Shown here: positions 7,219 to 34,689 of the stretch, one piece after another
Numbering within the stretch: position 1 is the stretch's first letter
How the letters are laid out: the number at the start of each line of letters is the position of its first letter
Source of the DNA: Enterobacteria phage ATK47
Length of the DNA: 64,000 bases
Sequence record: NC_055708.1
Direction: 5' to 3' (one strand)
Made by a program: the position numbers and the translations under genes
The notes under the pieces: model-generated
Databases searched by the model: none
Told to the model about the DNA's origin: nothing
The model's input: only the letters and a program-made list of their open reading frames with translations

Positions 7219-7799
7219 TGAAAGCTAGCACATACCTTCAGATTGCATATCTGATTTCTCAAGAATCAAAATGTTGTTCATGGAAAGTTGGTGCCGTCAT
7301 TGAAAAAGATGGACGCATTATCTCTACTGGATATAACGGTTCACCTGCAGGTGGCGTTAACTGTTGCGAACATGCATCTGAAAATGGTTGGTTGAAGAAT
7401 AAACCAATCCCAGTCATCGTTGCTGGACATAAAGAAGGCACTACAGCATTTGGACGGGTAGATAATTTTGTTTTAGCCAAAGAACATCGAGCTGCTCATA
7501 GTGCATGGTCTGCTAATAATGAAATCCATGCAGAATTGAATGCAATTTTGTTTGCCGCTCGTAAAGGTAATTCTATTGAAGGTGCTACGTTATATACGAC
7601 GCTTTCTCCATGTCCTGATTGTACTAAAGCTATTACGCAGTCAGGTATTAAAAAGGTTGTATATGCAGAATTATATGACCGATCTCCTGAAAACTGGGCA
7701 GACATTCTTAAACAAGCTGGTATTGAAGTAATTCAGTACTCTCGTAATAATCTTCGTTCTCTGAATTGGGAACAAATCCGAAACTTTTGTGGTGAATAA
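7218..7799 (+). CDS. cd: dCMP deaminase
   Basis: 193 aa, the same as T4 Cd; cytidine/deoxycytidylate deaminase zinc motifs (HAELNA ... SPCPDC). Confidence 0.9.
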   Translation: MKASTYLQIAYLISQESKCCSWKVGAVIEKDGRIISTGYNGSPAGGVNCCEHASENGWLKNKPIPVIVAGHKEGTTAFGRVDNFVLAKEHRAAHSAWSANNEIHAELNAILFAARKGNSIEGATLYTTLSPCPDCTKAITQSGIKKVVYAELYDRSPENWADILKQAGIEVIQYSRNNLRSLNWEQIRNFCGE

Positions 7800-7800
7800 T

Positions 7801-8097
7801 ATGATTTTAACTGAACGAGAAACTATGGTTCTTCGTGAACGTATTAAAACTATTCTGTCTGTAGGCGTTCATTGTGTTGTATTTGAAAAGGCTAACGGTG
7901 ATGTACGCACTATGTTTGCTTCGCGCGATGAACTTGAAGTCAAATATGAAAATAACAATCCGGCAACAGAAGTTCGTTATGAACCTCGTGAATCAGTTCG
8001 AGCATTCGATACCAAGTTAGGCCAGTGGCGTTCTTTCCGCCTTGATAAAGTAATTTCGGTTGATGGTACTCCGGTAGAACGTTTGCTTCTTATGTAA
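7801..8097 (+). CDS. Hypothetical protein, 98 aa (31.1/31.2 position)
   Basis: ATG at 7801 just after the cd stop; the ORF-track start at 7789 lies inside cd. Confidence 0.45.
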   Translation: MILTERETMVLRERIKTILSVGVHCVVFEKANGDVRTMFASRDELEVKYENNNPATEVRYEPRESVRAFDTKLGQWRSFRLDKVISVDGTPVERLLLM

Positions 8098-8124
8098 TAT
8101 GCTTTACGAATAGTATGGTATTAT
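8097..8124 (+). promoter_or_regulatory. T4 middle-type promoter (MotA box ATGCTTTA plus TATTAT) upstream of gene 31
   Basis: MotA-box-like sequence at 8097-8106 and -10-like TATTAT at 8119-8124, 12 nt apart. Confidence 0.55.
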
Positions 8125-8154
8125 TAATCTATCGTCAAACAACAAGGAAATAAG

Positions 8155-8487
8155 ATGTCTGAAGTACAACTCCCAATTCGTGCTGTTGGTGAATATGTCA
8201 TTCTGGTTTCTGAACCCGCTCAAGCAGGTGATGAAGAAGTTACCGAATCAGGACTTGTGATTGGTAAACGTGTTCAAGGTGAAGTTCCTGAACTATGCGT
8301 AGTTCATTCTGTAGGTCCTGATGTTCCTGAAGGTTTTGTTGAAGTCGGTGATTTGACTCCACTACCAGTTGGACAAATTCGAAATGTTCCACATCCATTT
8401 GTGGCTTTGGGACTTAAACAACCTAAAGAAATTAAACAGAAATTCGTAACATGCCACTATAAAGCTATTCCGTGTCTTTATAAGTGA
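8155..8487 (+). CDS. 31: Co-chaperonin gp31 (GroES analogue for capsid folding)
   Basis: 110 aa; sequence nearly identical to T4 gp31 as I recall it ([29 protein letters not shown] ... [10 protein letters not shown]). Confidence 0.9.
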
Positions 8488-8495
8488 TATAAATA
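8488..8495 (+). promoter_or_regulatory. T4 late promoter -10 element TATAAATA
   Basis: Exact TATAAATA immediately after the gene 31 stop, about 117 nt upstream of rIII. Confidence 0.45.
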
Positions 8496-8611
8496 ACTAT
8501 ATGAAGAGAACACTCTTCTAAGCGGTAGCCTACAACTGAGAGACTTGTCGAAAGAAGGTGAAATTCAGACGAACGTGGCTACTAAATATTATCTCGAATT
8601 GAGAATTTAAA

Positions 8612-8860
8612 ATGATTAAACAATTACAACACGCTCTTGAACTGCAACGCAACGCATGGAATAACGGTCACGAAAACTACGGCGCTTCAATTGATGTTGA
8701 AGCCGAAGCACTGGAAATCCTGCGATATTTCAAACATCTGAATCCTGCTCAGGCTACTCTGGCTTCTGAACTGGAAGCTAAAGATGAATTGAAATATGCT
8801 AAGCCTCTGGCTTCTGCAGCACGCAAAGCAGTTCGTCATTTTGTTATTACCCTTAAATAA
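8612..8860 (+). CDS. rIII: rIII lysis-inhibition accessory protein
   Basis: 82 aa, the same as T4 RIII; located after gene 31 as in T4. Confidence 0.75.
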   Translation: MIKQLQHALELQRNAWNNGHENYGASIDVEAEALEILRYFKHLNPAQATLASELEAKDELKYAKPLASAARKAVRHFVITLK

Positions 8861-9154
8861 GTTTTAGGTGATTCGCTACCTTAGTGCGGCTAGAAAATCG
8901 AGGAGCCGTCGAACTGTCTGATTAATGATTTGCGAATCATTATAGTTTTAAGACCCCGGCAGTTTTACGGTGTACCTCTTGAATGTATTTTATACTATCA
9001 CGCGTCAGAAAAAGGTTATCTGTCTAAGTCGTGGTTGGTATGATGACGGGTTTATGGTTATCCTGTCGTTAAATATCCAAAACCTATGTTCCCCTTGAGG
9101 GCTTGCGCAGGCAATGTCAATAAGTCCTGCATTTTCATTTAAAGAGAATTTATA

Positions 9155-9334
9155 ATGGCAAAACAAGCTAAAGCAAAGAAAGCAGTTGAAAAGAAAGTTG
9201 ATGGTACCTCTAAACGCGCTGGATACAAGCGTGGGTCGAACTCTCGTATTAATCAAACAGTTGAGAAGATCATGCGCAGAGCACGTGCAGTTCTTCGAGA
9301 TGATGCTTCTCGTTTTGGAAAGGTTGTTGCATAA
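9155..9334 (+). CDS. Small lysine/arginine-rich basic protein, 59 aa (below the ORF-track cutoff; 30.9 position)
   Basis: ATG at 9155 to TAA at 9332-9334, read manually: MAKQAKAKKAVEKKVDGTSKRAGYKRGSNSRINQTVEKIMRRARAVLRDDASRFGKVVA; followed at once by a terminator hairpin. Confidence 0.45.
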   Translation: MAKQAKAKKAVEKKVDGTSKRAGYKRGSNSRINQTVEKIMRRARAVLRDDASRFGKVVA

Positions 9335-9339
9335 TTTTA

Positions 9340-9361
9340 GGGAGACTTCGGTCTCCCTTTT
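9340..9361 (+). terminator. Rho-independent terminator (GGGAGAC-TTCG-GTCTCCC plus T-run)
   Basis: 7-bp GC-rich stem, UUCG tetraloop and TTTT seen in sequence. Confidence 0.7.
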
Positions 9362-9393
9362 GTGCGTTTAGGGCAGAAAAAGTTTAAAAAGAT

Positions 9394-9422
9394 GTTTACT
9401 CTCCTGTAGGATGTGTTACTAT
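9394..9422 (+). promoter_or_regulatory. T4-type early promoter
   Basis: GTTTAC at 9394-9399 and TACTAT at 9417-9422, followed by TAGAC; GGAG Shine-Dalgarno and ATG at 9465. Confidence 0.6.
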
Positions 9423-9464
9423 AGACTTGTACCATCTAATCAATAAAACAACCTGGAGAACAAA

Positions 9465-9833
9465 ATGAAAATCAATCTGAACTCATACATCAAATGTAAA
9501 GACCATGACGGTTATAAAGCTATCGAAATTAAAGAATTCCAGTGGATGTTATACAAAGAGCAATTTGAGTTCGTAGGTTGTATGACCCCTGAAGGTCCTT
9601 CTGATGATTTCTCTTGGAAAATTGTGTTAGCAAACTTTTTCACAGGTGACACATACGAATTAAAAACTATTATTACCGGTAAAATTCGTTCAGAAACATA
9701 TGTTGACGAAGAAACTGGTTACTCTGAAGATGTTACATGGTATCAAAATGGACGCATTACAGCAGATAACCTGATCGAAAAAATGAAAGCCAAAGGTGTT
9801 TTAAATTTAGACAATTGGATTAAAGTTGCATAA
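9465..9833 (+). CDS. Hypothetical protein, 122 aa (30.8 position)
   Basis: ORF downstream of an early promoter with a Shine-Dalgarno sequence. Confidence 0.5.
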   Translation: MKINLNSYIKCKDHDGYKAIEIKEFQWMLYKEQFEFVGCMTPEGPSDDFSWKIVLANFFTGDTYELKTIITGKIRSETYVDEETGYSEDVTWYQNGRITADNLIEKMKAKGVLNLDNWIKVA

Positions 9834-9837
9834 AACA

Positions 9838-9866
9838 GTTTACTTTGGTACAGGTTATGTTATTAT
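9838..9866 (+). promoter_or_regulatory. T4-type early promoter
   Basis: GTTTAC at 9838-9843 and TATTAT at 9861-9866, followed by TAGAC, closely resembling the promoter at 9394. Confidence 0.6.
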
Positions 9867-9907
9867 AGACCTGTACCAACAAACAACTTAAACATCCGGA
9901 GAATAAA

Positions 9908-10273
9908 ATGAACTACACCAACTTCGAACGCAAATATGTTTCTAACGGTATCGCTGGTTCTTCTGAAGTTATTTGCTTATGGAAACACGAAAACGGTACA
10001 GTTTGTGAAATCGAACAGTGCATGACTCCTAATTATGTTTATATGCGATTTGAAAATGGCATCACGGTTTCAATCACGATGGAAGGTTCAAATTTTAAAA
10101 TTGCATTAGATGATGATTTCCGTCAGCGCGATTTAGGTACTCATCCTTGCTGGAATGGTGTTAATCGTAAACTTCTGGTTAAAACCTGGATTCGTCATAT
10201 CCTGAGTAACCGAGCTAAACCTGAACATCTCGAAGCAATCTTTGATGTAGTTCTTAACGAATTTGATATCTAA
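9908..10273 (+). CDS. Hypothetical protein, 121 aa (30.7 position)
   Basis: ORF downstream of an early promoter; GGAG Shine-Dalgarno. Confidence 0.5.
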   Translation: MNYTNFERKYVSNGIAGSSEVICLWKHENGTVCEIEQCMTPNYVYMRFENGITVSITMEGSNFKIALDDDFRQRDLGTHPCWNGVNRKLLVKTWIRHILSNRAKPEHLEAIFDVVLNEFDI

Positions 10274-10280
10274 TTTAACT

Positions 10281-10296
10281 GGGAGCTTCGGCTCCC
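10281..10296 (+). other. Intercistronic GC-rich UUCG hairpin (GGGAGC-TTCG-GCTCCC)
   Basis: Perfect 6-bp stem with TTCG loop directly before the GAGGA Shine-Dalgarno of the next ORF; no T-run. Confidence 0.5.
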
Positions 10297-10308
10297 ACTG
10301 AGGAAATT

Positions 10309-10923
10309 ATGTTTAAAGTTAATACTTTTTATAAAATGAATTTTAAAAATGGGGATATTACTCCACGCCTTAAAAACATGTTCTCATATGACCTTATCGA
10401 GCCTTTTGAAGTTTTAGAAGTTACTGATGCCGGCTCAGTTTGTGAAATTAGAACTTCTGAAGGTAAAATTTATCAGGCAGGTGTTGGTAAATTCAGTAAT
10501 TGTTTTACTTTAATATTCTCGACCGATTTAGATGAGCATTTTATTGAATGTCCTAACCCTAAGGTCCATGAAGTTCCATGGAAAGAAACTAAGAAAAATG
10601 GACCGCATGAATACACGAAGGTTGAAACTCCTCACGGCGATATGTGGCGTCATAACTCTCCTTTTGGAAGTAAAGGAACATTTGCTCAACTGCCTAAACC
10701 GTATGACGATGAAAAATACATCGTCGCCTTTTTATCTGAACAGGGTACTCAAGACCGTGGATGCCAAAGAAGTGGTTTACTAAGTGAACTTGAAGCTCAT
10801 AACCAAGCACGTGAATTCGTTGAGAAAAATCCTGGTTCTGAAGCTCTAGTCATGAAAGCAGTTACTCAATATATCACTGCTCAACCTATTGTTCATCCGG
10901 TAGAAATTAATTTCATTAAGTAG
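10309..10923 (+). CDS. Hypothetical protein, 204 aa (30.6 position)
   Basis: ORF with Shine-Dalgarno; the largest uncharacterised early ORF in the window; several Cys and His residues. Confidence 0.55.
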   Translation: MFKVNTFYKMNFKNGDITPRLKNMFSYDLIEPFEVLEVTDAGSVCEIRTSEGKIYQAGVGKFSNCFTLIFSTDLDEHFIECPNPKVHEVPWKETKKNGPHEYTKVETPHGDMWRHNSPFGSKGTFAQLPKPYDDEKYIVAFLSEQGTQDRGCQRSGLLSELEAHNQAREFVEKNPGSEALVMKAVTQYITAQPIVHPVEINFIK

Positions 10924-10953
10924 TTTACATCCAAGGACGGATTAGAGTATAAT
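10923..10953 (+). promoter_or_regulatory. T4-type early promoter
   Basis: GTTTAC at 10923-10928 and TATAAT at 10948-10953 (19-nt spacer, longer than the others). Confidence 0.45.
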
Positions 10954-10977
10954 GATTTCTTTAGTAAGTGGAAAAAT

Positions 10978-11175
10978 ATGAAATTTTTAATAGCACAAAC
11001 AGTCCAATTAAAAGGTGTTGGAATTCCTGGGGTGATTTTTAAAGTTCTCCCTGAATTTAAAACCGCCGCTGGAATTATCAATGAAGCGTATGCTGTTCAA
11101 TGGGTTGATTGGACTTCTGACATACGTATGGGTAAAGAGTTATCTCCTATTAAAGGGTTGAAACATGTTGAATAA
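10978..11175 (+). CDS. Hypothetical protein, 65 aa (30.5 position)
   Basis: ORF downstream of a promoter; no motif. Confidence 0.4.
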   Translation: MKFLIAQTVQLKGVGIPGVIFKVLPEFKTAAGIINEAYAVQWVDWTSDIRMGKELSPIKGLKHVE

Positions 11176-11377
11176 ATTAATCCAGAAATTGTTAGGTACA
11201 GAAATGATCGAAGTTACTTATCGTGTAACTGACTGCTCGCCTATTCATCCACAGGATGAACCATTTATCAAGACAATTAAAATGCTTAAAAATGACGGTG
11301 GTTTATCTATTGAAGACCGTCTGCCTAGTTACGGCCATTGGGCTGATGTTGAAATTATAAGTGTTAAAGATGTCTGA
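11165..11377 (+). CDS. Hypothetical protein, 70 aa (30.4 position)
   Basis: ORF overlapping its neighbours; no motif. Confidence 0.4.
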   Translation: MLNKLIQKLLGTEMIEVTYRVTDCSPIHPQDEPFIKTIKMLKNDGGLSIEDRLPSYGHWADVEIISVKDV

Positions 11378-11828
11378 ATTAGAAATAAGAAGTAATTTCA
11401 AGTGGCCGTCATGTGCATTAAGTAACTTTGCTCAATGGCCTTTTGTTATGGATGGTATTCAATTCGGAGGTCTTGAAGGATTTCTCCAAGGATGTAAGGT
11501 GAAAAATGTTGAACAACAAAGACGTATATTTGGGTTGTCTGGATTGGCTGCACAGCAAGCTGGAAGGTCTTATGCAAGAGCTCAGGACCGTGGAACTCTC
11601 TTCTGGTTAGGAGTTCCGTTTTCAAGATACTCCGAAGCGTGGAAAGAATTATACACAAATGCATATTTTGAAGCCGCGATCCAAAATAAGGGGTTTCGTG
11701 ATGCCTTACAAGCCTCTAAAGGAAAAATTTTGAAGCACAGCATGGCTAGCCACCTAACAAAAGATGATACAATACTAACTGAAGCTGAATTTATTGATGT
11801 GTTAAACCTATTAAGAGACTCTTTATGA
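11370..11828 (+). CDS. NADAR/YbiA-like (DUF1768) domain protein (30.3 position)
   Basis: ALSNFAQWPF ... DGIQF resembles the FSNF...WP...DG core of E. coli YbiA as I recall it; ATG at 11370 (ORF-track start at 11361 is GTG). Confidence 0.5.
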   Translation: MSELEIRSNFKWPSCALSNFAQWPFVMDGIQFGGLEGFLQGCKVKNVEQQRRIFGLSGLAAQQAGRSYARAQDRGTLFWLGVPFSRYSEAWKELYTNAYFEAAIQNKGFRDALQASKGKILKHSMASHLTKDDTILTEAEFIDVLNLLRDSL

Positions 11829-12640
11829 AGCCTACTATTTTGACTGATATTGATGGTGTATGTTTAAGTTGGCAATCTGGACTTCCTTATTTTGCCCAAA
11901 AATATAATCTTCCATTAGAACATATTTTAAAAATGATTCAGGACGAAAAATTTATTTCTCCTGGTAAACTATTCAATACCGACGATAACCTTGGTAAACA
12001 ATTAATAGAAAAATATAATAGCTCTGATTTTATTCGTTACTTAGCGCCTTATTCAGATGCTCTTCGAGTTATCAATAAACTAAAAGAAGACTATAATTTT
12101 GTAGCCGTGACGGCGCTAGGTGATTCAATTGATGCTCGATTGAATAGACAATTTAATTTGAATGCTTTGTTCCCAGGCGCTTTCTCTGAAGTAATGATGT
12201 GTGGTCATGATTCTTCAAAGGAACAATTATTCGAACTAGCTAAAACAAAATATAACGTGATTTGTTACGTTGACGATTTAGCTCATCACTGTGACCATGC
12301 GGCAGAAATTCTTAATGTACCGATTTATTGGTTGGCTCGTGGTGAACGTGATGATATTCCTCGCACTGCACAACGTGTACACACGTGGGATGATATTGAA
12401 TCTCGATTGGTTCCGCCAGAGCATAATTCAAATTCAGATCGTGAAGACCTTTTAAAACGATTGGCCGATTTGCTTAAAGAATCTGGTGCAACAAGTCCAG
12501 GTGCATGGCCTAATCAAATTGGCGCTCCGTCGAATCCGTATACCTGGCGAACCCCAGGACCAACTGATATGCGGCCATGGTGGACGATTCAAAACTTTCC
12601 TTTAGATTCGTCTAAATGGACTTGGTCTATAAATTGTTAA
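11825..12640 (+). CDS. HAD-superfamily-like hydrolase (30.2 position)
   Basis: N-terminal LTDIDGV matches HAD motif I (DxDG[T/V]); ATGA overlap with the upstream ORF. Confidence 0.5.
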   Translation: MKPTILTDIDGVCLSWQSGLPYFAQKYNLPLEHILKMIQDEKFISPGKLFNTDDNLGKQLIEKYNSSDFIRYLAPYSDALRVINKLKEDYNFVAVTALGDSIDARLNRQFNLNALFPGAFSEVMMCGHDSSKEQLFELAKTKYNVICYVDDLAHHCDHAAEILNVPIYWLARGERDDIPRTAQRVHTWDDIESRLVPPEHNSNSDREDLLKRLADLLKESGATSPGAWPNQIGAPSNPYTWRTPGPTDMRPWWTIQNFPLDSSKWTWSINC

Positions 12641-12649
12641 GGGATACTT

Positions 12650-12919
12650 ATGTTTGTAGTTCATGATATTACAGATGGCAAAAACACCACACGTGACTAC
12701 GGTCACGTTAACATGTTCTTTCGAGACTGGCCATTGTTTCGTTCAGTAAAAGACGCAGAAATATTTAAAGAGTGTGTTGAACAAGGGTTCATCTACATTT
12801 CAGAATACTATGTTGAAGGACTCGGTAAATGGATTACCACTTATCAGAAAACGCTGAAATCGCTTCTAGATGAAGTGGCTTATAATAGAACCGTAACCAA
12901 AATCGAGGACATCAAATGA
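12650..12919 (+). CDS. Hypothetical protein, 89 aa (30.1 position)
   Basis: ORF; stop overlaps the ligase start (ATGA). Confidence 0.45.
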   Translation: MFVVHDITDGKNTTRDYGHVNMFFRDWPLFRSVKDAEIFKECVEQGFIYISEYYVEGLGKWITTYQKTLKSLLDEVAYNRTVTKIEDIK

Positions 12920-14409
12920 TTTTAGATATTTTAAACCAAATAGCTGCGATCGGTTCTACTAAAACAAAACAAGAAATCCTTAAGAAAAATAAGGACAACA
13001 AATTACTTGAACGTGTGTATCGTTTAACATATGCACGTGGTATCCAGTATTATATTAAGAAATGGCCAGGACCAGGTGAAAGGTCTCAAGCGTATGGTCT
13101 TCTTGAATTAGATGACATGTTGGATTTTATTGAGTTCACATTAGCCACTCGTAAACTCACTGGTAATGCTGCAATTAAAGAGCTCATGGGTTATATCGCT
13201 GACGGTAAACCTGATGATGTAGAAGTCCTTCGTCGTGTAATGATGCGAGACCTTGAAGTAGGTGCTTCAGTGTCTATCGCGAATAAGGTGTGGCCTGGAC
13301 TTATTCAATTGCAGCCACAGATGTTAGCATCTGCATATGATGAGAAATTGATTACTAAAAATATTAAATGGCCTGCATTTGTCCAATTAAAGGCAGATGG
13401 TGCTCGTTGTTTCGCTGAAGTTCGCGATGATGGCGTTCAATTCTTTTCTCGTGCCGGTAACGAATACCATGGTCTTACTCTATTAGCAGATGAACTAATG
13501 GAAATGACTAAAGAAGCTCGTGAAAGACACCCTAATGGGGTTTTAATCGACGGTGAATTAGTTTATCATTCATTTGATATTAAAAAGGCTGTGAGCTCAG
13601 GAAATGACCTGTCGTTCTTATTTGGCGATAATGAAGAATCCGAAGAAGTACAAGTTGCAGACCGTAGCACTTCAAATGGTTTAGCAAATAAATCTCTTCA
13701 AGGGACTATTTCTCCTAAAGAAGCGGAAGGTATGGTTCTTCAAGCCTGGGACTATGTTCCTTTAGATGAAGTCTACTCTGATGGCAAAATTAAAGGCCAG
13801 AAATACGATGTTCGTTTTGCTGCTCTTGAAAATATGGCTGAAGGCTTTAAGCGAATTGAGCCAATTGAAAATCAGTTAGTTCGTAATCTTGACGAAGCTA
13901 AAGTGGTTTATAAAAAATATGTTGACCAAGGTCTTGAAGGTATTATCCTTAAAAACCGTGATTCATATTGGGAAAACAAACGCTCTAAGAATCTAATTAA
14001 ATTTAAAGAAGTTATTGATATCGCTTTAGAAGTTGTAGGATACTACGAACACTCTAAAGACCCTAACAAATTAGGTGGTGTCGAACTCGTATCACGTTGT
14101 CGTCGTATTACAACCGATTGTGGTTCAGGTTTTAAAGATACAACTCATAAAACAGTTGACGGTGTAAAGGTTCTTATTCCTTTAGATGAGCGTCATGATT
14201 TAGACCGTGAACGATTAATGGCTGAAGCTCGTGAAGGTAAATTGATTGGACGTATTGCTGATTGCGAATGTAATGGTTGGGTTCATTCTAAAGGCCGTGA
14301 AGGTACTGTAGGTATTTTCCTTCCAATTATTAAAGGGTTCCGTTTTGATAAAACAGAAGCGGATTCGTTTGAAGACGTATTTGGACCGTGGTCCCAGACA
14401 GGTTTATAA
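12916..14409 (+). CDS. 30: ATP-dependent DNA ligase gp30
   Basis: 497 aa; adenylation motif KADGAR; extensive similarity to T4 DNA ligase as I recall it (MIL.ILN.IA.IGSTK ... YRLTY ... ECNGW). Confidence 0.92.
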   Translation: MILDILNQIAAIGSTKTKQEILKKNKDNKLLERVYRLTYARGIQYYIKKWPGPGERSQAYGLLELDDMLDFIEFTLATRKLTGNAAIKELMGYIADGKPDDVEVLRRVMMRDLEVGASVSIANKVWPGLIQLQPQMLASAYDEKLITKNIKWPAFVQLKADGARCFAEVRDDGVQFFSRAGNEYHGLTLLADELMEMTKEARERHPNGVLIDGELVYHSFDIKKAVSSGNDLSFLFGDNEESEEVQVADRSTSNGLANKSLQGTISPKEAEGMVLQAWDYVPLDEVYSDGKIKGQKYDVRFAALENMAEGFKRIEPIENQLVRNLDEAKVVYKKYVDQGLEGIILKNRDSYWENKRSKNLIKFKEVIDIALEVVGYYEHSKDPNKLGGVELVSRCRRITTDCGSGFKDTTHKTVDGVKVLIPLDERHDLDRERLMAEAREGKLIGRIADCECNGWVHSKGREGTVGIFLPIIKGFRFDKTEADSFEDVFGPWSQTGL

Positions 14410-14597
14410 TGAAAGCTTATTTAGAAACAGTTATTGTAGCTAAGAAGGATGGTGGAGATGTTTCCACCTCTTGCTCTCAGATTATATTAGATTTTCCTAA
14501 TGAAAATTCGTATCGGGTTTTCGTAGATAACGTTAATGGGTACGAAAAAGGCCCTAATTTTGAAGTTTATCGTACTTTGCTCCCGATTGTGGATTAA
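14409..14597 (+). CDS. Hypothetical protein, 62 aa
   Basis: ATG overlapping the ligase stop (TAATG); followed by a terminator. Confidence 0.4.
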   Translation: MKAYLETVIVAKKDGGDVSTSCSQIILDFPNENSYRVFVDNVNGYEKGPNFEVYRTLLPIVD

Positions 14598-14616
14598 GAG
14601 CCTTCGGGCTCTTTTT
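14597..14616 (+). terminator. Rho-independent terminator (AGAGCC-TTCG-GGCTCT plus TTTTT)
   Basis: 6-bp stem, UUCG loop and T-run seen in sequence. Confidence 0.7.
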
Positions 14617-14652
14617 GGCATAAATATAAATTATTACTAAAAGGAAAACACT

Positions 14653-16740
14653 ATGTCTGAACAAATAAACGAAGTGTTTGAATCTGAAGGCAGTCTTCCT
14701 GTCGTCAATTTGAACCCTAAAGCTAAAGTTCCACAAGTCTGGAAAATTGGTGATATCGATACAAACATCGTAGTTCGCTTATTCTCTTATCTTTCTGAAG
14801 GCGATGCCGTAAAACAAGTTAAACTTGGCGACAAATACGCTCATGTTGTTATTATGAGTCTATCTGAAAAGGGTAATCTCGCTGAATTGAAAAATGGCCT
14901 TGGTCCTGCTCCTATTGATGCAATCAACACTATTTTCAATACAGTATATGAACAGGTTAAAGCTCTTCGTATGGATGCAGTTCTGTTCCGATTCCCTACC
15001 AAGAAATTGAAAGGACGTGGACAACAGCTTCAAACTCTTCTTGCTCGTTTAGTTTCTACTAAAACCGGTGGTCGTTTTAAAGTATTGTCGGCAATGTATC
15101 AATTCACAGGTAAACACACCTATGTGATGATGGTTCGTAAAAATGCCAACATTGAAGATATTAAAGGCATCCCTAACATTAACACAGAGTTGTATACGAA
15201 AGTAGATTCTGATGTTGGCGAAGTTTATGTGAGTAAAAAGACCGGCGAAAAGGTCACCAAAGAAACGGCTATCGCTGGTTCTATTGCTGCTGTAGAAGAA
15301 AAACGTAAAGATAAGCCTGTTATTGCTCGTACTAAAATTTCTCGTCGTGCTATTGCAGCAAGTCAATCTTTAGAAGCTGACCGACAAGAAGGTGAGTTAT
15401 TCCAGAAATACGAAAATTCTGCTAAAGAAGTTAGTGGCCCAGCTACGGCCGAATTACTTCCTGAAGCATATGAAATCGTACTAGCCCAAGCATCGTCCAC
15501 AGCAAAAGGCACTTTAGTTGCTGATATCGAAAATAAGATTTATAATCGTATTGATGAATCCTTTAAATTTGCCGATGAAGTTTCTTATGGTAGTGTTATT
15601 AAGCCGACTTTAGAAAAGTTTGCTAAGAAAATTAAAACTGAAAAAACAACATCTGTTAAAGCATTAGCTGCTTTTGTTGAAGCTGCAAATGAAATTGCAG
15701 ACTCTATTAAAGACGAATGGTTTGAAGATTTTAGACGTGATAATTTCCAACTGCCTGACGACGTTTTAGCTGAAGTATCTGAAAGAACTTGGAAACAACG
15801 TAAATCAGCGTTCTTGTCTAATGTGATGTATACTTATGCCCGAGAATCGGCTAGAGGCACCTTTAATATAACAATGAATCGGGACCCTAAACAATACTCT
15901 GTTGCTGAAAAACGAGCTATTCGTGAATATGCCTCTTCTGCGTATACCGATATCAATAATATGTTGTTAGGTCGTTATAAACCGGATTTTTATGATGTTG
16001 CAGATGAAGATGAAGTTAAACGCGCTATTGATGGTCTTGATTCGGCGTTTTTAAATGGAGACCGTTTACCTGAAGGACTAACGTTATATAGAGCTCAGTC
16101 TATCAGAATGCCTATTTACGAAGCAATGGTTAAAAATAAGGTATTCTACTTCAGAAACTATGTTTCCACTTCACTAGCTCCTATTATTTTCGGTGGGTTT
16201 AAAGAGAACGTTGCCCTTGGACTTGCTCCTGAAGAAGTTCGCAAAGAGCTTAACATTGACAATAATGACGAAGGTGTTACTATTTCTCCTAGTCAAGTAA
16301 GAACAGCTATGCATGCACCAGAACAAATCCGTGTTAACGTTGGATGGGCTATCGATGGCGCCCATAAAGTTAACGTGATTTATCCAGGACAGTTGAGTAA
16401 CCACCCTAATGAGCAAGAAATTATTTTGCCTAGAGGCATTCTCTTGCAGATAAATAAAATTACAGATGCGTCATCTGACACCGGTGCAGGTTTAGAATCC
16501 AACCTTAAATTTATTCAAGCTGAAGTCATGTCCTCAGACCAGTTGGATGAAGCCGTCATTTATGATGGTGATGTTCTCATGGAAACAGGCGAGGTGGTTG
16601 CTATGACGGGTGAAATCGAATCGGATGAGCCGGTATCGTTCTCCTCATTTGTAGAAAAAACTAGTGCACCTAAAGGTTTGAAATTGTTAGCATCTTTAAT
16701 GGATTTAGAATCAGTTCCGTTTAAATTTGTCCAAGGATAG
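14653..16740 (+). CDS. alt: Alt ADP-ribosyltransferase (capsid-packaged, modifies host RNA polymerase)
   Basis: 695 aa (T4 Alt is about 682); position between ligase and gene 54; AAGGA Shine-Dalgarno; ART-like region in the C-terminal half. Confidence 0.8.
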   Translation: MSEQINEVFESEGSLPVVNLNPKAKVPQVWKIGDIDTNIVVRLFSYLSEGDAVKQVKLGDKYAHVVIMSLSEKGNLAELKNGLGPAPIDAINTIFNTVYEQVKALRMDAVLFRFPTKKLKGRGQQLQTLLARLVSTKTGGRFKVLSAMYQFTGKHTYVMMVRKNANIEDIKGIPNINTELYTKVDSDVGEVYVSKKTGEKVTKETAIAGSIAAVEEKRKDKPVIARTKISRRAIAASQSLEADRQEGELFQKYENSAKEVSGPATAELLPEAYEIVLAQASSTAKGTLVADIENKIYNRIDESFKFADEVSYGSVIKPTLEKFAKKIKTEKTTSVKALAAFVEAANEIADSIKDEWFEDFRRDNFQLPDDVLAEVSERTWKQRKSAFLSNVMYTYARESARGTFNITMNRDPKQYSVAEKRAIREYASSAYTDINNMLLGRYKPDFYDVADEDEVKRAIDGLDSAFLNGDRLPEGLTLYRAQSIRMPIYEAMVKNKVFYFRNYVSTSLAPIIFGGFKENVALGLAPEEVRKELNIDNNDEGVTISPSQVRTAMHAPEQIRVNVGWAIDGAHKVNVIYPGQLSNHPNEQEIILPRGILLQINKITDASSDTGAGLESNLKFIQAEVMSSDQLDEAVIYDGDVLMETGEVVAMTGEIESDEPVSFSSFVEKTSAPKGLKLLASLMDLESVPFKFVQG

Positions 16741-16769
16741 TTTACAAACACATGGATGTGTGATACTAT
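16740..16769 (+). promoter_or_regulatory. T4-type early promoter
   Basis: GTTTAC at 16740-16745 and TACTAT at 16764-16769, with the GTGATACTAT block shared with the promoter at 5811. Confidence 0.55.
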
Positions 16770-29146: not shown

Positions 29147-29353
29147 ATGAGATTGATTATGAGAACTGAGGTTGAAGTTTATACATTACATGAGGCGGGA
29201 TTTTCATTCGTAGAAATTGCTCAAAAAATCGGTTTACAACCTAAAGAAGTTGGATTACTATGGACTAAAGCCGAGACAGCTCGGTCAAAGTTTAAAGCAA
29301 AAGAAAAAGTTGTATACCGTAAACGTCTGATTAATAAAAAGGTGAAGAAATGA
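29147..29353 (+). CDS. Small protein with helix-turn-helix-like segment, 68 aa (24.3 position)
   Basis: FSFVEIAQKIGLQPKEVGLL resembles an HTH; basic C-terminus. Confidence 0.45.
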   Translation: MRLIMRTEVEVYTLHEAGFSFVEIAQKIGLQPKEVGLLWTKAETARSKFKAKEKVVYRKRLINKKVKK

Positions 29354-30721: not shown

Positions 30722-30751
30722 AAAAAAGGGACCGTAAGGTCCCTTTTTTTT
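30722..30751. terminator. Bidirectional rho-independent terminator between rnlB and gene 24
   Basis: AAAAAA-GGGACC-GTAA-GGTCCC-TTTTTTTT: GNRA-loop hairpin flanked by an A-run and a T-run. Confidence 0.75.
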
Positions 30752-32033
30752 ATTCATCAATGATAATTTTTGGTAGCTTAACACCGAGTAAAACAGACAA
30801 GTCTGAACGTCCTGCCATTTTATCCATGTCCCCGCCATCAATTATTCTCGCTTCTTTTTCATCTTTTGCTACTGTGTAAGGATTTGCTGATAAAGCATAT
30901 CTAACCAATAATCCGATAGACGGTTGCAAGCTTTCTGGATCAACTACAACTTTAAATGCACCAACATGTTCTGGGTCATCTAAATCTACTCCTTCAGTGT
31001 ATGGAGCATAAAAGATGGACCCTACAATTTCTTTTTCACCGAGATTTTCTACAACACCCACAATAACATAATCTAGCGGGCTGTTGGTATCGCAGTAAAG
31101 AGGTAATCCATTTGCCAAGAATCCATAAGCATTTTGTGAAAGATACTTGTCATCTTCTGGCTTATGTTTTAACCAACCAGAAGCAGCAAGAATAGCAGCT
31201 GCACGAGCTGAGGCTACACAAAACGTTGCAGTATAAGTTGTCTCTTTTTGAATGTGTGATACCATTTCACACACCATTCGATATAATGAACGACCTGCTT
31301 CTGGAGCGGATGTATAGCTCAAGTCAATAAATCCGGTGTCAGTAATTCCAGTAACTTTATAACGTTTCGATACAGTAATTAAAGACTGAAGAATATCTTT
31401 ATTAATTTCATCTGCCATTTCAGTAGCAAGCAAATCTTCTAAGAAGTTAGGGGCATCAAATCCATTCGCTTCCAAATCTTGCGCTAATTCGACCGTGAGG
31501 CCAGTTTTAAGTTTACGAGATTTGACTGCAGTTTGCCATTTATTAATCTGGAATCTTGCATCAGAAATTTCGCTATCAGAGCTTTCAAATTTGCTTGTTA
31601 CCGCTGCATCTGAAAATAACCGTACCTTTAAATGAACGACTGCAATCTGAAGAGCTAATTCTAGATCACTTTCTTGAATATCTGCAAATGGTGTATCTTC
31701 TAACACCTTATAGACAATATTATTATATTTGAAAAAATCACCTTTATTTAGTGTGACTTTTGATTCTTCTGTGAGCTCGGTAATTTTTTCTCGGTCTACA
31801 TATCCAACTTCGCCTGCATAAGTAGCACCAGTTTTAAATGTGAATTCGTTATCTGGGTTAAGATATTTGATACCATAAAAAGCAGCAACAGGTTGATTAG
31901 TTCTTTGTGTTGCTACAATGTCAGAATATATTAATTTAGTCGTAGCGCGAGTCAAAGCAACGAGATTTGGGCGACCAATTGAGTTGCTAGTAGACGTTGT
32001 AGATTCGCGCAATAATTTTTGGATTTTACTCAT
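30750..32033 (-). CDS. 24: Head vertex protein gp24
   Basis: 427 aa, the same as T4 gp24; capsid-protein fold paralogue of gp23; synteny. Confidence 0.9.
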   Translation of the reverse strand: MSKIQKLLRESTTSTSNSIGRPNLVALTRATTKLIYSDIVATQRTNQPVAAFYGIKYLNPDNEFTFKTGATYAGEVGYVDREKITELTEESKVTLNKGDFFKYNNIVYKVLEDTPFADIQESDLELALQIAVVHLKVRLFSDAAVTSKFESSDSEISDARFQINKWQTAVKSRKLKTGLTVELAQDLEANGFDAPNFLEDLLATEMADEINKDILQSLITVSKRYKVTGITDTGFIDLSYTSAPEAGRSLYRMVCEMVSHIQKETTYTATFCVASARAAAILAASGWLKHKPEDDKYLSQNAYGFLANGLPLYCDTNSPLDYVIVGVVENLGEKEIVGSIFYAPYTEGVDLDDPEHVGAFKVVVDPESLQPSIGLLVRYALSANPYTVAKDEKEARIIDGGDMDKMAGRSDLSVLLGVKLPKIIIDE

Positions 32034-32060: not shown

Positions 32061-32068
32061 TATTTATA
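32061..32068 (-). promoter_or_regulatory. T4 late promoter TATAAATA for gene 24
   Basis: Reverse complement of TATAAATA, 28 nt upstream of the gene 24 start. Confidence 0.65.
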
Positions 32069-32074
32069 AAGATT

Positions 32075-32104
32075 GTTTACAACGTATTTGGTATGTGATA
32101 CTAT
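32075..32104 (+). promoter_or_regulatory. T4-type early promoter driving the 88-aa ORF and homing-endonuclease cassette
   Basis: GTTTAC at 32075-32080 and TACTAT at 32099-32104, followed by TAGAC; GAGGAG Shine-Dalgarno. Confidence 0.6.
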
Positions 32105-32133
32105 AGACTTATCAAAACATGAGGAGATTAAAA

Positions 32134-32400
32134 ATGAACAAATTAAACTTTATCCGTACCACACTTTCTAACCTTGACAAAGACATCAAAGCTCTGGTAG
32201 AAAAATTTGGTACCAATCCTAACGGTAATGCAGTTAATGCATTGGTTAAGAAATACGAAGCCCTGGCTTATGAAACTGACTTCTGGTGGAACGGTGAATA
32301 TTCTACCCATACCAAAGACAAATCTGGTAACTGGCTGAAAATCCAAGAAAATCGTATTGACTTCCGTGATATCATCAACCGTCGTGTCAAAGCAGCGTAA
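32134..32400 (+). CDS. Hypothetical protein, 88 aa
   Basis: ATG at 32134 after a GAGGAG Shine-Dalgarno (the ORF-track start at 32119 overlaps the Shine-Dalgarno); no motif. Confidence 0.5.
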   Translation: MNKLNFIRTTLSNLDKDIKALVEKFGTNPNGNAVNALVKKYEALAYETDFWWNGEYSTHTKDKSGNWLKIQENRIDFRDIINRRVKAA

Positions 32401-32403
32401 AAT

Positions 32404-33063
32404 ATGAATTATTTAATTTACAAAATAACCAATCTCATTAATAACAAGATTTATGTTGGAGCCCATGCCACTACAGATGTTAACGATTCTTATATGGGTT
32501 CCGGGGTTAACATAGTAAAATCCATAAAGAAATACGGCTTAGAGAATTTTAAAAAGGAAATCCTTTTCAATTTCGAAACATCTGAAGAGATGTATGCTAA
32601 GGAAGCCGAACTAGTTGACGAGGCTTTTGTCATGAGAACAGATACTTATAATGCAGCCTTAGGCGGCAAGGGTAATCCTGTTATAGTAGCTTTACAGGAA
32701 CCTGGGTATCGTGAGATGTTATCCGAAAAGACAAAAGCTGGTATGTCTGAAGAAGTTCGGGCCAAAATATCTAAAAAGAAATTAGGTTCTAAAGAATCTA
32801 AAGAACATCGAGAAAACAAATCTATAGCAAATAAAAAGTTTTATAAAAATAGAGATTCTCATCTTAAAGGTAGAAAACTATCAGAAGAGCATAAAGCAAA
32901 AATTAGAAAGAATTCTAATAAAGGTAAGAAATTTGTATTTGTGGATATTTCTATTAAAGGTCATGAATTTAACCACTACGATTACGCTGCCGAATTCTTT
33001 AACGTATCCGCAAAAACTATAAGAAATTGGATTAATGAACGCGATGATTGTTTTAAGCTATAG
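32404..33063 (+). CDS. GIY-YIG homing endonuclease (Seg-like; SegD position)
   Basis: 219 aa; N-terminal GIY-YIG module (YLIYKITNLINNKIYVGAH ... ) and a basic C-terminal DNA-binding-like region; location matches where I recall T4 segD. Confidence 0.75.
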   Translation: MNYLIYKITNLINNKIYVGAHATTDVNDSYMGSGVNIVKSIKKYGLENFKKEILFNFETSEEMYAKEAELVDEAFVMRTDTYNAALGGKGNPVIVALQEPGYREMLSEKTKAGMSEEVRAKISKKKLGSKESKEHRENKSIANKKFYKNRDSHLKGRKLSEEHKAKIRKNSNKGKKFVFVDISIKGHEFNHYDYAAEFFNVSAKTIRNWINERDDCFKL

Positions 33064-33073
33064 AAACAAGAAT

Positions 33074-33091
33074 GGGAGACCGGAGTCTCCC
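33074..33091. other. GC-rich hairpin (GGGAGAC-CGGA-GTCTCCC) between the endonuclease gene and the gene 23 3' end
   Basis: Perfect 7-bp stem; no clear T-run on the plus strand, modest U-rich tail on the minus strand. Confidence 0.5.
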
Positions 33092-33120
33092 ATAAGGTTA
33101 TGTATTTTATCGTTAAAGCA

Positions 33121-34689
33121 TTAAATTCCTTTAACGTAGACGCGTCTAAAGTAAGCGTTCTTACCAAGGCTGTTCAGGATAGACGGCATACCGGACTGGA
33201 TGCGAGCACCTGGAGCCTGCAGGGAACTTTCAGCAAACGGGTTAACACCGATACCGTAACGAGTTTTAAAGCCCATTACCGGCTGGAAGTTCTTAGGATC
33301 GGAACCACGCAGTGGGGTAAGTGCAACGTAAGGAGCATAGTAAATACCTGCATCCATTTCGTTAGCGCCTTTGTAACCAACGGTGAAGTAATCCTGTTTA
33401 GCATACTGGTCGATGTATACGCGGTATTTACCACCAAGTACACCGGCAAATACAGACTTAGTAGTGTCGGTATTAAAACCAGAAGCCAGACCCTGTGCAG
33501 CGTAAGAAATACCAGTATCAACTGAAGCCAGTACGTTAACTACGTTACGGGAAGCGATAATGAAGTTACCTTCACCACGACCGGTTTGACGAGCAATTTC
33601 AACTGCTTCTTTATCAATCTGGAACAACAGAGATTTAAAGCTTTCACCGGCCCAACGAGCACCACGGATATCAATCGGGTCCTGGAAGTCAAATACACCA
33701 GCTTTAGAACCCGGAGTCAGGGTCATACCAGATTTACCAACCTGTGCCGAGTAGTTAATCCAATCAACAACTTCACGGTTGATTTCTAGCATAATTTCTG
33801 TAGCCAGAATACCGCTCAGTTCAGCATCAGCATCCATACCGTGTACTGCACGGAGGTCTTGTGCCAATTCGATGGAGTAAGCAGCTTTCAGCTGGCGAGA
33901 TTTAGCTTCGATAACTTGTTTATCGATACGGAAGCCCATTTCGTTCCACGGGTTGTCGGTAGAACCGTTGAAACCTTCCTGGAGTTCAGCGATAGAAGTA
34001 GCCATACCTTCAGCGATTTCTACCAGTGCACCAGCTTCCATTTGTTTCTTAACTTCTGCATCTAATTTAGCTGCATCAGTTGCACCAGAATCAAGTGTTA
34101 CGATAGCAGAAGCTTGCAGATATACAGTACCAGTTTCTTGGAAGAAGTGAGTATAGATATCACCTACAACGGTAGTAGTGTCAGCAGCCAGAGCTGGGAA
34201 TTTCTTAGCAGCACCCTGACCAGAGAACATCGCGTCCGGGGCATACATCGGATGGAAAGCTTCTTTAGCGCCAGCAGCGATAGGGTCTTTACCATATACT
34301 GCACGGAGAGCAAATACCTGACCGGTAGGGCTGTTCATAGGCTGAACACCACAAATATCAAAAGCGATCAGATTAGGAATAGCACGACGAACCATACCCA
34401 TAACTGCCGGCCCAATTTGGGTTACTGCACCAGAGGTTTGACCTGCTGCGATGTTCTGAGCATTATAACCGTGGTCACCACCAATTTCAGCTTCGGTCAA
34501 GAAAGAACCAAATGCCTGAGCGATTTTCTCGTCTTTATATTCAGGGGATACTTCGAAATCTTTTTCCTGGTTTTCGAAGATTTTAGCGATAATAGCCTGC
34601 TTGCTATTAGCGATTTCCGGCAGGCCTTCACCTTCCAGCAGTTCTTTCCATTTGTCTACGAGCTGAGCTTTAGTTTTGATAGTAGTCAT
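33121..34689 (-). CDS. 23: Major capsid protein gp23
   Basis: 522 aa (T4 gp23 is 521); N-terminal propeptide region and core sequence match T4 gp23 as I recall it. Confidence 0.95.
   Translation of the reverse strand: MTTIKTKAQLVDKWKELLEGEGLPEIANSKQAIIAKIFENQEKDFEVSPEYKDEKIAQAFGSFLTEAEIGGDHGYNAQNIAAGQTSGAVTQIGPAVMGMVRRAIPNLIAFDICGVQPMNSPTGQVFALRAVYGKDPIAAGAKEAFHPMYAPDAMFSGQGAAKKFPALAADTTTVVGDIYTHFFQETGTVYLQASAIVTLDSGATDAAKLDAEVKKQMEAGALVEIAEGMATSIAELQEGFNGSTDNPWNEMGFRIDKQVIEAKSRQLKAAYSIELAQDLRAVHGMDADAELSGILATEIMLEINREVVDWINYSAQVGKSGMTLTPGSKAGVFDFQDPIDIRGARWAGESFKSLLFQIDKEAVEIARQTGRGEGNFIIASRNVVNVLASVDTGISYAAQGLASGFNTDTTKSVFAGVLGGKYRVYIDQYAKQDYFTVGYKGANEMDAGIYYAPYVALTPLRGSDPKNFQPVMGFKTRYGIGVNPFAESSLQAPGARIQSGMPSILNSLGKNAYFRRVYVKGI

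Follow-up and report, generated by a model that had tools for sequence, protein, structure and literature searches.

A Probable Orthologue of T4 segD, Antisense Between Genes 24 and 23 of the Mosigvirus ATK48

Organization of the Gene 24–23 Spacer

The stretch of DNA analyzed here (the window; 64,000 nt, record NC_055708.1) is 100% identical to Enterobacteria phage ATK48, an RB69-related Mosigvirus, and the locus is referred to below by that name. Two minus-strand capsid genes, gene 24 (30750–32033; Pfam Gp23, E = 3e-98) and gene 23 (33121–34689; Pfam Gp23, E = 4e-121), flank a spacer that holds, in order, the late promoter motif of gene 24 on the minus strand (32061–32068), an early-type promoter on the plus strand (32075–32104), two plus-strand reading frames designated ORF88 (32134–32400) and seg (32404–33063), and a GC-rich hairpin (33072–33093). 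All of the features that a first-pass annotation had listed at 32061–33091 were found in the sequence, including the hairpin, the stem of which is slightly wider than the 33074–33091 originally quoted.

Among the T-even phages examined, this spacer occurs in five states: empty; promoter and segD; promoter and ORF89; promoter and ORF88; or promoter, ORF88, and segD. T2-type Tequatroviruses have neither promoter nor ORF at the locus, and the gene 24 late promoter is there followed directly by the terminator.

Identity of the seg Product

The seg ORF encodes 219 amino acids and begins with an ATG positioned 3 nt past the ORF88 stop codon. Its product shares 58% amino acid identity with T4 SegD over the full length (E = 1e-87), and both its synteny and its antisense orientation are shared with T4, with Dhakavirus IME08 (where the gene is annotated as segD), and with the Winklervirus Gravdalen. 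In T4 the gene occupies the same locus, likewise antisense, and its 3′ junction is again immediately ahead of the hairpin that terminates gene 23. The ATK48 gene has already been annotated in GenBank as a homing endonuclease.

The search for GIY-YIG catalytic and DNA-binding modules proposed in the first-pass annotation had a divided outcome. The protein passes TIGR01453, a curated model of group I intron endonucleases, with 59.1 bits against a cutoff of 56.05 (residues 5–214), and matches phrog_314 (homing endonuclease) at E = 3e-54, but all of its Pfam matches fall under the gathering scores, including GIY-YIG (16.2 vs. 22.6), SegE_GIY-YIG (20.3 vs. 25), NUMOD3, and HTH. The assignment therefore leans on TIGR01453, PHROGs, and the predicted fold. 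The AlphaFold2 model has a pLDDT of 87.8, with a dip to 56 at residues 91–100, between the domains, and its top Foldseek matches are the two domains of I-TevI, catalytic (1mk0) and DNA-binding (1i3j_A), each with a probability of 1.00. I-TevI was also reached from seg by profile search; a single-sequence search of the PDB returned only a chance match to ribosomal protein L5 (E = 0.63).

Like I-TevI, the endonuclease of the T4 td intron (PDB 1mk0/1ln0, 1i3j), the seg product would thus have a GIY-YIG nuclease at its N terminus, connected through a linker to a DNA-binding domain at its C terminus, although I-TevI is intron-encoded whereas seg is free-standing, and identity between the two is about 23%. 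I-TevI is 245 amino acids long, so that seg is the shorter protein. The motif pair LIY (residues 4–6) and YVG (residues 17–19) aligns with the GIY and YVG of I-TevI. Sixteen columns are invariant across 55 homologues, among them Y6, Y17, G19, E67, and N83; Y82-N83 aligns with YN90 of I-TevI, and E67 falls one residue off E75 in a stretch of low alignment confidence. I-TevI residues 24–29, including Arg27, are an insertion relative to the SegD-family profile, leaving seg with a 6-residue deletion at the position of Arg27 and no residue aligned to it. Of the catalytic residues in question, Y6, Y17, E67, and N83 are present, and Arg27 is without an aligned counterpart. T4 SegD also has none, and the SegD family possesses invariant H21, D28, and Y30.

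The gene is intact in all five copies examined (ATK48, IME08, UP19, 04086, and T4), with dN/dS values of 0.10–0.24 overall and 0.00–0.09 in the catalytic half, indicating purifying selection. Its GC content is 32.6% compared with 38.1% for the window, and its use of AGA and TTA codons contrasts with that of ORF88. Given the above-cutoff TIGR01453 match, the presence of both I-TevI domains in the fold, and the similarity to SegD at the same locus and orientation, the earlier description of a free-standing gene of the GIY-YIG homing-endonuclease type holds. The reading we favor, at a probability of roughly 0.85, is that the region carries the ATK48 orthologue of T4 segD, a free-standing gene for a GIY-YIG endonuclease resembling I-TevI, placed between genes 24 and 23 and antisense to them.

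T4 SegD has been studied biochemically. Divergence between it and the ATK48 protein is uneven, with dN at 0.55 in the C-terminal DNA-binding half and 0.17 in the N-terminal half, and because it is the C-terminal half that has diverged, target specificity may differ from that of T4 SegD. The T4 locus also lacks ORF88; the promoter and a GGAG sequence lie directly upstream of segD, whereas the ATK48 gene is situated behind ORF88 and has no Shine–Dalgarno sequence of its own. The Dhakavirus segD loci (IME08, IME341, UP19, and 04086) instead share the ATK48 order of promoter, ORF88, seg, and hairpin, and the ATK48 protein is 89% identical to the IME08 SegD cluster; the C-termini of IME08 and 04086 are four residues longer.

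The remaining seg genes of T4 (segA, B, C, E, F, and G), which serve as the model for homing of free-standing endonuclease genes together with co-conversion of flanking DNA, resemble seg in being intergenic, free-standing, low in GC, adjacent to essential genes, and present or absent between close relatives; their mobility and target sites have been tabulated (PMC2988022). According to the same review, every other endonuclease gene of T4 runs in the same direction as its neighbors and is expressed from a middle or late promoter, never an early one. The ATK48 gene differs on both counts, being antisense to its neighbors and located behind an early-type promoter.

Divergent Promoters

The gene 24 late promoter motif, TATAAATA, matches the consensus exactly and precedes the ATG of gene 24 by 28 nt. 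Its 18 occurrences in the window compare with 7.5 expected, and none of 100 shuffles reached that number. Back to back with it lies a sequence matching the T4-type early (sigma-70) promoter consensus (PMC1524935), GTTTAC-N18-TACTAT, in which the −35 element (32075–32080) is separated by an 18-nt spacer from a −10 element (32099–32104) that is preceded by TGn, forming an extended −10. Framed as TTTACA-17-TACTAT, it scores 9/12 plus TG, and the transcription start would be near 32111. A homologous sigma-70-like promoter of T4 segD, TTTACA-17-TATTAT plus TG, likewise adjoins the late promoter of gene 24 in divergent orientation.

A generic sigma-70 scan of this region yielded fewer promoter-like sites (7) than did shuffled sequences (12.8), so the case for the promoter rests on enrichment of the phage-specific motif and on conservation. 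Within the window, GTTTAC-N16-19-TANNNT occurs 12 times compared with 4.35 expected, 11 of the copies being on the plus strand, and several of them have GTTTACAA...GTGATACTAT in common. Alignment across Mosig-, Dhaka-, and Tequatrovirus sequences revealed that the −35 and −10 elements are kept while the spacer has diverged. As motifs the two divergent promoters are real, in agreement with the first-pass annotation, and homologous sites had been predicted in RB69 as early promoter Pe:109605 (score 29.9) and late promoter Pl:109573 (PMC1524935). Early timing is predicted from the motif class only. A middle promoter was considered and rejected, as TGTTTAC is by eye a poor match to the MotA box TGCTTtA whereas the early −35 GTTTAC is exact.

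The promoter is found directly upstream of segD in T4 and in Erwinia phage Gravdalen. A 2010 review noted that no promoter specific to segD was known in T4 (PMC2988022), whereas the comparison made here indicates that a sigma-70-type promoter is conserved upstream of segD even in that phage.

The Hairpin Downstream of Gene 23

The hairpin (33072–33093) has a full stem of 9 bp and folding z-scores of −3.0 on the plus strand and −3.8 on the minus strand. The terminator scan called it on the minus strand only, where the stem is followed by the T-run TCTTGTTTCT; because of this T-run, the hairpin is recognized as the intrinsic terminator of gene 23. PMC1524935 describes a terminator after gene 23 in each of the six genomes compared there, and the hairpin is retained in all of the seg-free relatives as well as in T2. 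It was not called on the plus strand, on which AAGGTTATG follows the stem, so a role as a bidirectional stop that also ends the ORF88–seg transcript is possible by position only.

ORF88, a Conserved Neighbor of seg

ORF88 is preceded by the Shine–Dalgarno sequence GAGGAG (32121–32126), 8 nt before its ATG, and belongs to phrog_6003 (E = 1e-48). It had no match in Pfam and a noise-level match only in NCBIfam, and it is without annotation in the ATK48 record. Homologues were found by tblastn in 131 phage records, and the gene resides here in Mosig-, Dhaka-, and Gaprivervirus genomes irrespective of whether seg is present. A word-index search of the protein returned seven close homologues, and an exhaustive HMMER search of 1.8 billion representatives gave seven matches. 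Two of the latter seven, P0129 and P0132, were large repetitive proteins with NGNG or D-x-SGNW-like repeats and were judged compositional rather than homologous. In seg-free records tblastn coverage was confined to residues 1–72, but interpretation of this as a truncated allele was rejected in favor of an artefact of masking and extension; ORF88 of SQ17 is full length and 99% identical.

Selection on ORF88 is strongly purifying (dN/dS 0.03–0.14). All of its arginine codons are CGT and all of its glycine codons GGT, as in gp23, CTG is also used, and its GC content is 39.0%. The predicted structure (pLDDT 93) is an alpha-alpha-beta-beta-alpha fold, for which structural searches gave no informative neighbor, the BFVD yielding only a nameless homologue. 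The protein is probably abundant and early, and without a known function or structural relative. The suggestion that ORF88 might be cargo of the endonuclease gene does not hold in a strict sense, given its occurrence without seg in many phages, its strong purifying selection, and a codon usage like that of gp23 and unlike that of seg. From these comparisons ORF88 appears to be a conserved small early gene, a neighbor of seg rather than its cargo.

Presence and Absence of seg

Relatives without the insert exist, so the arrangement is not universal: seg is absent from SQ17, WFL6982, RB69, and JS98, where the empty sites are precise. The insertion point lies between the ORF88 stop codon and the gene 23 terminator hairpin, the empty site reading ...GTTAAGATTGCATAG|TATAGAAACAAGAATGGGAGACC and the occupied site ...GTCAAAGCAGCGTAAAATATG[seg]CTATAGAAACAAGAATGGGAGACC. 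Of 145 records matching the junction, around 38 are split at the site and bear seg; this count derives from a single junction query and is approximate, since gene 23 3′ ends differ between genera. Among the unsplit records listed, some continue through the insertion point without interruption, and in others another allele of ORF88 is present. The seg-bearing Mosigvirus records are about 98% identical to one another and include RefSeq/GenBank duplicates and at least 12 LF82-n isolates; all of them may stem from one acquisition.

The promoter, ORF88, and the hairpin are all three present in the seg-free SQ17, WFL6982, RB69, and JS98, and so are not exclusive to a seg cassette. In Mosig- and Dhakaviruses, the optional DNA is essentially the 660-bp seg ORF alone. 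To describe the locus, as the earlier view did, as a plus-strand island equipped with a promoter of its own is nonetheless fair at the scale of the subfamily, because T2-type phages lack the promoter and in T4 and Gravdalen it drives segD, but within Mosig- and Dhakaviruses only seg is optional.

Mosaic Tracts and Exchange Between Genera

Sliding-window identity and junction alignments revealed stretches of seg that are 98.6–100% identical to Dhakavirus copies, although identity in the flanking capsid genes is in places only about 55–85%. ATK48 positions 32302–32732 differ from IME08 by 6 mismatches in 431 nt, 32110–32732 from 04086 by 15 in 623 nt, and 32747–33154 from UP19 by a single mismatch in 408 nt, a tract that takes in the final ~30 nt of gene 23. 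Between these genera, gene 24 is 47–83% identical and much of gene 23 is 62–90% identical, the capsid genes flanking the Dhakavirus copies being those of a different genus. The Dhakavirus copies are thus mosaics with respect to ATK48, IME08 and 04086 matching it in the catalytic half only and UP19 perfectly in the DNA-binding half. A breakpoint at 32733–32746, where the linker connects the catalytic domain to the DNA-binding domain, is common to all three comparisons, and a second breakpoint lies ~30 nt into gene 23. By these alignments, segments of seg have been exchanged recently between genera.

The same analyses delimit a Dhakavirus-like recombinant block on the plus strand (32110–33090), consisting of ORF88 allele A and seg, which replaces ORF89 allele B of Mosigviruses, such as WFL6982 and RB69, that are otherwise 97–100% identical. 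Its left crossover falls at ~32109–32118, between the −10 box and the ORF88 Shine–Dalgarno sequence, and its right crossover within the hairpin. SQ17 carries the same ORF88 allele without seg, implying that alleles are also exchanged at this locus without the nuclease. SQ17 and JS98, the two seg-free genomes compared, agree in the last eight codons of ORF88, which adjoin the insertion, and the four seg-bearing genomes compared show three different forms.

Expression and Mobility of seg

ORF88 and seg are probably cotranscribed from the early promoter. The ribosome-binding site of ORF88 is strong, and as seg has none and starts immediately after the ORF88 stop, its product is probably made in small amounts by termination–reinitiation. 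Masking of the seg start by a hairpin, as in other T4 endonuclease genes, was considered and rejected, as the predicted fold is no better than that of shuffled sequences (z = 0.69). By analogy with other T4 Seg enzymes, a seg-free genome would be cut near the locus in a mixed infection, and repair from the seg-bearing genome would copy seg together with a short flanking stretch. Gene conversion of the capsid genes, which the first-pass annotation had envisaged, is plausible, with a visible footprint that extends only ~30 nt into gene 23.

Self-catalyzed mobility cannot be assumed, because T4 SegD reportedly initiates neither homing nor recombination at its site (Sokolov, 2018, in the summary given by PMC9523250). 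The most serious alternative, which we regard as possible though on balance unlikely, is that SegD has been domesticated: having lost the ability to spread its own gene, it would be kept for a benefit to the phage, such as cutting competitor genomes elsewhere or stimulating recombination, and its patchy distribution would reflect ordinary homologous recombination in co-infection. Besides the T4 report, the allele exchange seen in SQ17 and the retention of the seg position in four genera are in keeping with this. Strong purifying selection on both domains would also fit, but active homing genes are under purifying selection as well, and the observation does not discriminate. Identity, however, peaks on seg and drops within tens to hundreds of nucleotides on both sides, as conversion tracts around a nearby break would, and the variation in the last eight ORF88 codons of seg-bearing genomes is compatible with remodelling of a target site.

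A self-contained mobile cassette, in which the promoter, ORF88 as cargo, seg, and a dedicated terminator move as a unit, is decidedly improbable. It draws on the T2-type phages, which have neither promoter nor ORF, so that the promoter does travel with the plus-strand genes at the subfamily scale; on the block distinguishing ATK48 from the near-identical WFL6982, which holds ORF88 allele A and seg together; and on the position of every examined seg copy of the ATK48-type allele downstream of ORF88 allele A. However, ORF88 with the same promoter and hairpin but without seg is found in SQ17, JS98, and many other records, the promoter element itself being present in seg-free relatives, while segD occurs without ORF88 in T4 and Gravdalen and an ORF88 homologue resides at an unrelated locus in Acinetobacter phage ABPH49. 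The hairpin, as the terminator of gene 23, is present in T2, which has no island, and so is not part of a cassette. The ATK48 promoter is the native Mosigvirus version, identical to that of WFL6982, and is not the one that accompanies ORF88 in SQ17 and the Dhakaviruses; the contrast in codon usage between ORF88 and seg also argues against such a cassette. That seg is an inactive relic decaying in place is very improbable, for although its Pfam scores are sub-threshold, Arg27 lacks an aligned counterpart, and it has no ribosome-binding site of its own, the ORF is full length and intact in ATK48, IME08, UP19, 04086, and T4, evolves under the constraint described above, retains the 16 invariant columns with the two motif tyrosines, the glutamate, and the asparagine, and has a confidently predicted fold.

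Starting from the preferred reading of seg as a segD orthologue, a more specific, though doubtful, scenario can be put forward tentatively. Unlike what has been reported of its T4 counterpart, the SegD of Mosig- and Dhakaviruses would be an active homing nuclease targeting the junction of the 3′ end of ORF88 with the terminator of gene 23. Its expression would be slaved to the highly expressed ORF88 by translational coupling, conversion tracts would carry the ORF88 allele and the final codons of gene 23, the major capsid gene, between genera, and breakage at the linker would reshuffle nuclease and DNA-binding modules.

Concluding Remarks

That segD lies in the interval from gene 23 to gene 24 is already known from T4, and in this respect there is little here that is new; the added value is modest and comparative. 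The five states of the locus, the mosaic tracts, and the promoter of T4 segD could nevertheless help to explain the odd behavior of T4 SegD, and crosses of ATK48 with SQ17 or WFL6982 suggest themselves as natural donor and recipient pairs for the study of SegD homing.

Identity of the Endonuclease Gene

The plus-strand ORF of 219 codons at 32404-33063, here termed seg, encodes a segD-type element, an identification of family and anatomy that we hold with a probability of about 0.85. Its product is 58% identical to T4 SegD over the full length (E=1e-87), and T4 segD lies, likewise antisense to genes 23 and 24, at the site that seg occupies between them in Enterobacteria phage ATK48 (KT184310; Mosigvirus, RB69 group), to which the window is 100% identical. 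The protein reaches 59.1 bits with the group I intron endonuclease model NCBIfam TIGR01453, whose cutoff is 56.05, and matches PHROG 314 (homing endonuclease; E=3e-54); matches to the Pfam GIY-YIG models are sub-threshold only. The best PDB matches to an AlphaFold model made from an alignment of 55 homologues (mean pLDDT 87.8) are the catalytic (1mk0, 1ln0) and DNA-binding (1i3j) domains of I-TevI, each with a probability of ~1.00. Residues Y6, Y17, G19, E67, and N83 are invariant in the 55 homologues, and Y6, Y17, E67, and N83 are the counterparts of the GIY/YIG tyrosines, Glu, and Asn of I-TevI. I-TevI Arg27 has no aligned partner because the seg family is six residues shorter at that stretch, and the same is true of T4 SegD. 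Intact copies occur in ATK48, IME08, UP19, 04086, and T4, with a dN/dS of 0.10-0.24 (0.00-0.09 in the catalytic half), so the gene is no decaying relic. Both the family, which has a name, and its locus are thus established, and public records already carry an annotation of seg. In phage 04086 (OR842557) an intact segD-type ORF of 223 aa (~3384-4055 of record L008) is unannotated; the major head protein is annotated as truncated in the same record, suggesting poor annotation or assembly.

Locus Layout and Promoters

All of the features listed by the first-pass annotation, which had described an early-promoter-driven homing-endonuclease cassette, are present. Genes 24 (30750-32033) and 23 (33121-34689), both encoding Gp23-family capsid proteins, lie on the minus strand, and a match to the late-promoter motif TATAAATA, whose 18 copies in the window exceed the 7.5 expected, is found at 32061-32068 on that strand. 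On the plus strand are an early-type promoter motif with a TGn extended -10 (GTTTAC-N18-TACTAT; 32075-32104), an 88-codon ORF (ORF88; 32134-32400) with GAGGAG 8 nt 5' of its ATG, and seg, followed by a GC-rich hairpin with a 9-bp stem (33072-33093) detected by terminator scan and folding.

A generic sigma-70 scan of the region gave no enrichment; the phage-specific pattern GTTTAC-N16-19-TANNNT occurs 12 times in the window against 4.35 expected, 11 of these on the plus strand, and several copies are near-identical (GTTTACAA...GTGATACTAT) to that at 32075-32104. The -35 and -10 elements are kept in alignments from Tequatroviruses to Dhakaviruses, with divergence of the intervening spacer, and early (Pe:109605) and late (Pl:109573) promoters have been predicted at the homologous sites of RB69 (PMC1524935). 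The plus strand has nine further near-consensus early motifs of the form GTTTAC...TAnnnT, many of which end in GTGnTACTAT, at 1095-16769 and 29232-29261, the last within a small ORF (29147-29353) 5' of a gene 24.2 homologue.

Extent of the Optional DNA

Relatives that lack seg do exist. The close Mosigvirus relatives SQ17, WFL6982, and RB69 all keep the promoter, small ORF, and hairpin, as does the Dhakavirus JS98, from which seg is also missing. The empty-site junction reads ...CGCCGAGTTAAGATTGCATAG|TATAGAAACAAGAATGGGAGACC... and the occupied one ...CGTCGTGTCAAAGCAGCGTAAAATATG[seg]...CTATAGAAACAAGAATGGGAGACC..., placing the insert in the gap that separates the hairpin from the ORF88 stop codon. 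Together these comparisons argue that the optional DNA within Mosig- and Dhakaviruses is the seg ORF alone (~660 bp). The proposed cassette thus stands as regards its free-standing endonuclease ORF but not its promoter, small ORF, and hairpin, which seg-free relatives share. Since its T-run is on the minus strand, it is present in T2, and a terminator 3' of gene 23 was predicted in all six genomes compared (PMC1524935), the hairpin is assigned to gene 23 as its terminator, and any stop that it offers to the plus-strand transcript is at most positional.

At subfamily scale the description of an island fares better. T4-type segD is found in ~53 Tequatrovirus records, and most of the other matches look like empty sites of the T2 type, with flanks ~320 bp apart. 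The T2 spacer holds nothing besides the late promoter of gene 24 and, directly after it, the terminator; a plus-strand promoter is missing. In T4 and in Erwinia phage Gravdalen (Winklervirus), a homologous early-type promoter directly precedes segD and there is no ORF88. A 2010 review recorded T4 as having no identified promoter specific to segD (PMC2988022); our scan finds TTTACA-17-TATTAT with TG (10/12) immediately 5' of segD (record L004, 6254-6282, minus strand), at a site that corresponds by homology to the promoter of RB69 and ATK48, and GTTTAC-N17-TATAAT in Gravdalen (record L012, 2453-2481). These arrangements indicate at least five states of the 24-23 locus, and the whole plus-strand island, promoter included, is optional at this scale.

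ORF88 and seg both start ATGAAY (32119-32145, 32398-32425), and the leaders of Gravdalen (L012 2480-2520) and T4 resemble that of ORF88 (GGAGAT.A.A.ATGAAC) fused to seg codon 3 onward, so that a deletion from one start region to the other could have given rise to the ORF88-less arrangement. The Dhakaviruses IME08, JS98, and UP19 have a tandem duplication of gene 24 (24a/24b); ATK48, T4, and RB69 have a single copy.

ORF88

The small ORF is a genuine gene, assigned to PHROG 6003 (function unknown) and found in 131 phage records (Mosig-, Dhaka-, and Gaprivervirus), with a dN/dS of 0.03-0.14; it is unannotated in the ATK48 GenBank record and annotated as a hypothetical protein in sister genomes. 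Like gp23 it uses only CGT for Arg and GGT for Gly, whereas seg (32.6% GC) uses AGA and TTA. The suggestion that it is cargo is not borne out, given its presence in seg-free phages and this difference in codon usage; it is a neighbor of seg. The best guess for its product is an abundant early protein, to judge by the class of its promoter, its ribosome-binding site, and the codons it uses. The structure, predicted with confidence (pLDDT 93; alpha-alpha-beta-beta-alpha), has no informative structural neighbors, and an exhaustive HMMER search gave seven hits only, two of them judged compositional.

Two alleles, 31% identical, occupy the locus: A in ATK48, SQ17, and Dhakaviruses, and B in WFL6982 (ORF89) and RB69. 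RB69ORF188c and RB69ORF189c (record L005, 9292-9532, minus strand) appear to be two pieces of an allele-B homologue broken by a frameshift, which would reflect either a pseudogene or an error in sequencing of the RB69 record. A homologue of ~41% identity lies amid small hypothetical genes at an unrelated locus of Acinetobacter phage ABPH49 (Vequintavirinae; record L011, 2501-2767), and the ORF88 family is therefore itself horizontally mobile.

Exchange Between Genera

ATK48 and Dhakaviruses are 47-83% identical in gene 24 and 62-90% in much of gene 23, but far more alike in the seg region, where ATK48 differs from IME08 by 6 mismatches in 431 nt (32302-32732), from 04086 by 15 in 623 nt (32110-32732), and from UP19 by 1 in 408 nt (32747-33154). 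In all three comparisons identity shifts at 32733-32746 (about seg codon 111), in the linker joining the nuclease and DNA-binding domains, and this common breakpoint makes the seg copies domain-level mosaics. The UP19 tract extends across the hairpin into the final ~30 nt of gene 23 and is the only co-conversion footprint found in a capsid gene. WFL6982 is 97-100% identical to ATK48 in genes 23 and 24, and relative to it ATK48 carries a Dhakavirus-like block (~32110 to ~33090; ORF88 allele A plus seg) with crossovers just 3' of the -10 box and within the hairpin. In SQ17 the ORF88 allele is that of ATK48, the left crossover differs, and seg is missing, so allele exchange at the locus also takes place when the nuclease is absent. 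The last eight ORF88 codons are identical in both seg-free genomes compared (SQ17 and JS98; ...KIA*) and take three forms among four seg-bearing ones (KAA*, KAE*, KVEA*), a pattern compatible with, but no proof of, target-site remodeling.

Expression and Homing

Early in infection host RNA polymerase would initiate near 32111, giving a transcript that covers ORF88 and seg. Translation of ORF88 is likely to be efficient. Seg, which lacks a ribosome-binding site, begins 3 nt past the ORF88 stop (TAAAATATG), with no RNA structure found at its start; its translation is probably low-level, by reinitiation. As with other Seg enzymes of T4 (PMC2988022), the protein may cut seg-free genomes near the locus in mixed infections, with seg being copied in during repair. 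In the one experimental study known for the orthologue, T4 SegD reportedly initiated neither homing nor recombination at its own site (Sokolov et al., 2018), and we regard self-catalyzed homing of ATK48 seg as somewhat doubtful.

The observation made in the first-pass annotation is confirmed and its interpretation supported in part. What remains of interest are ORF88 and the comparative details of the locus.
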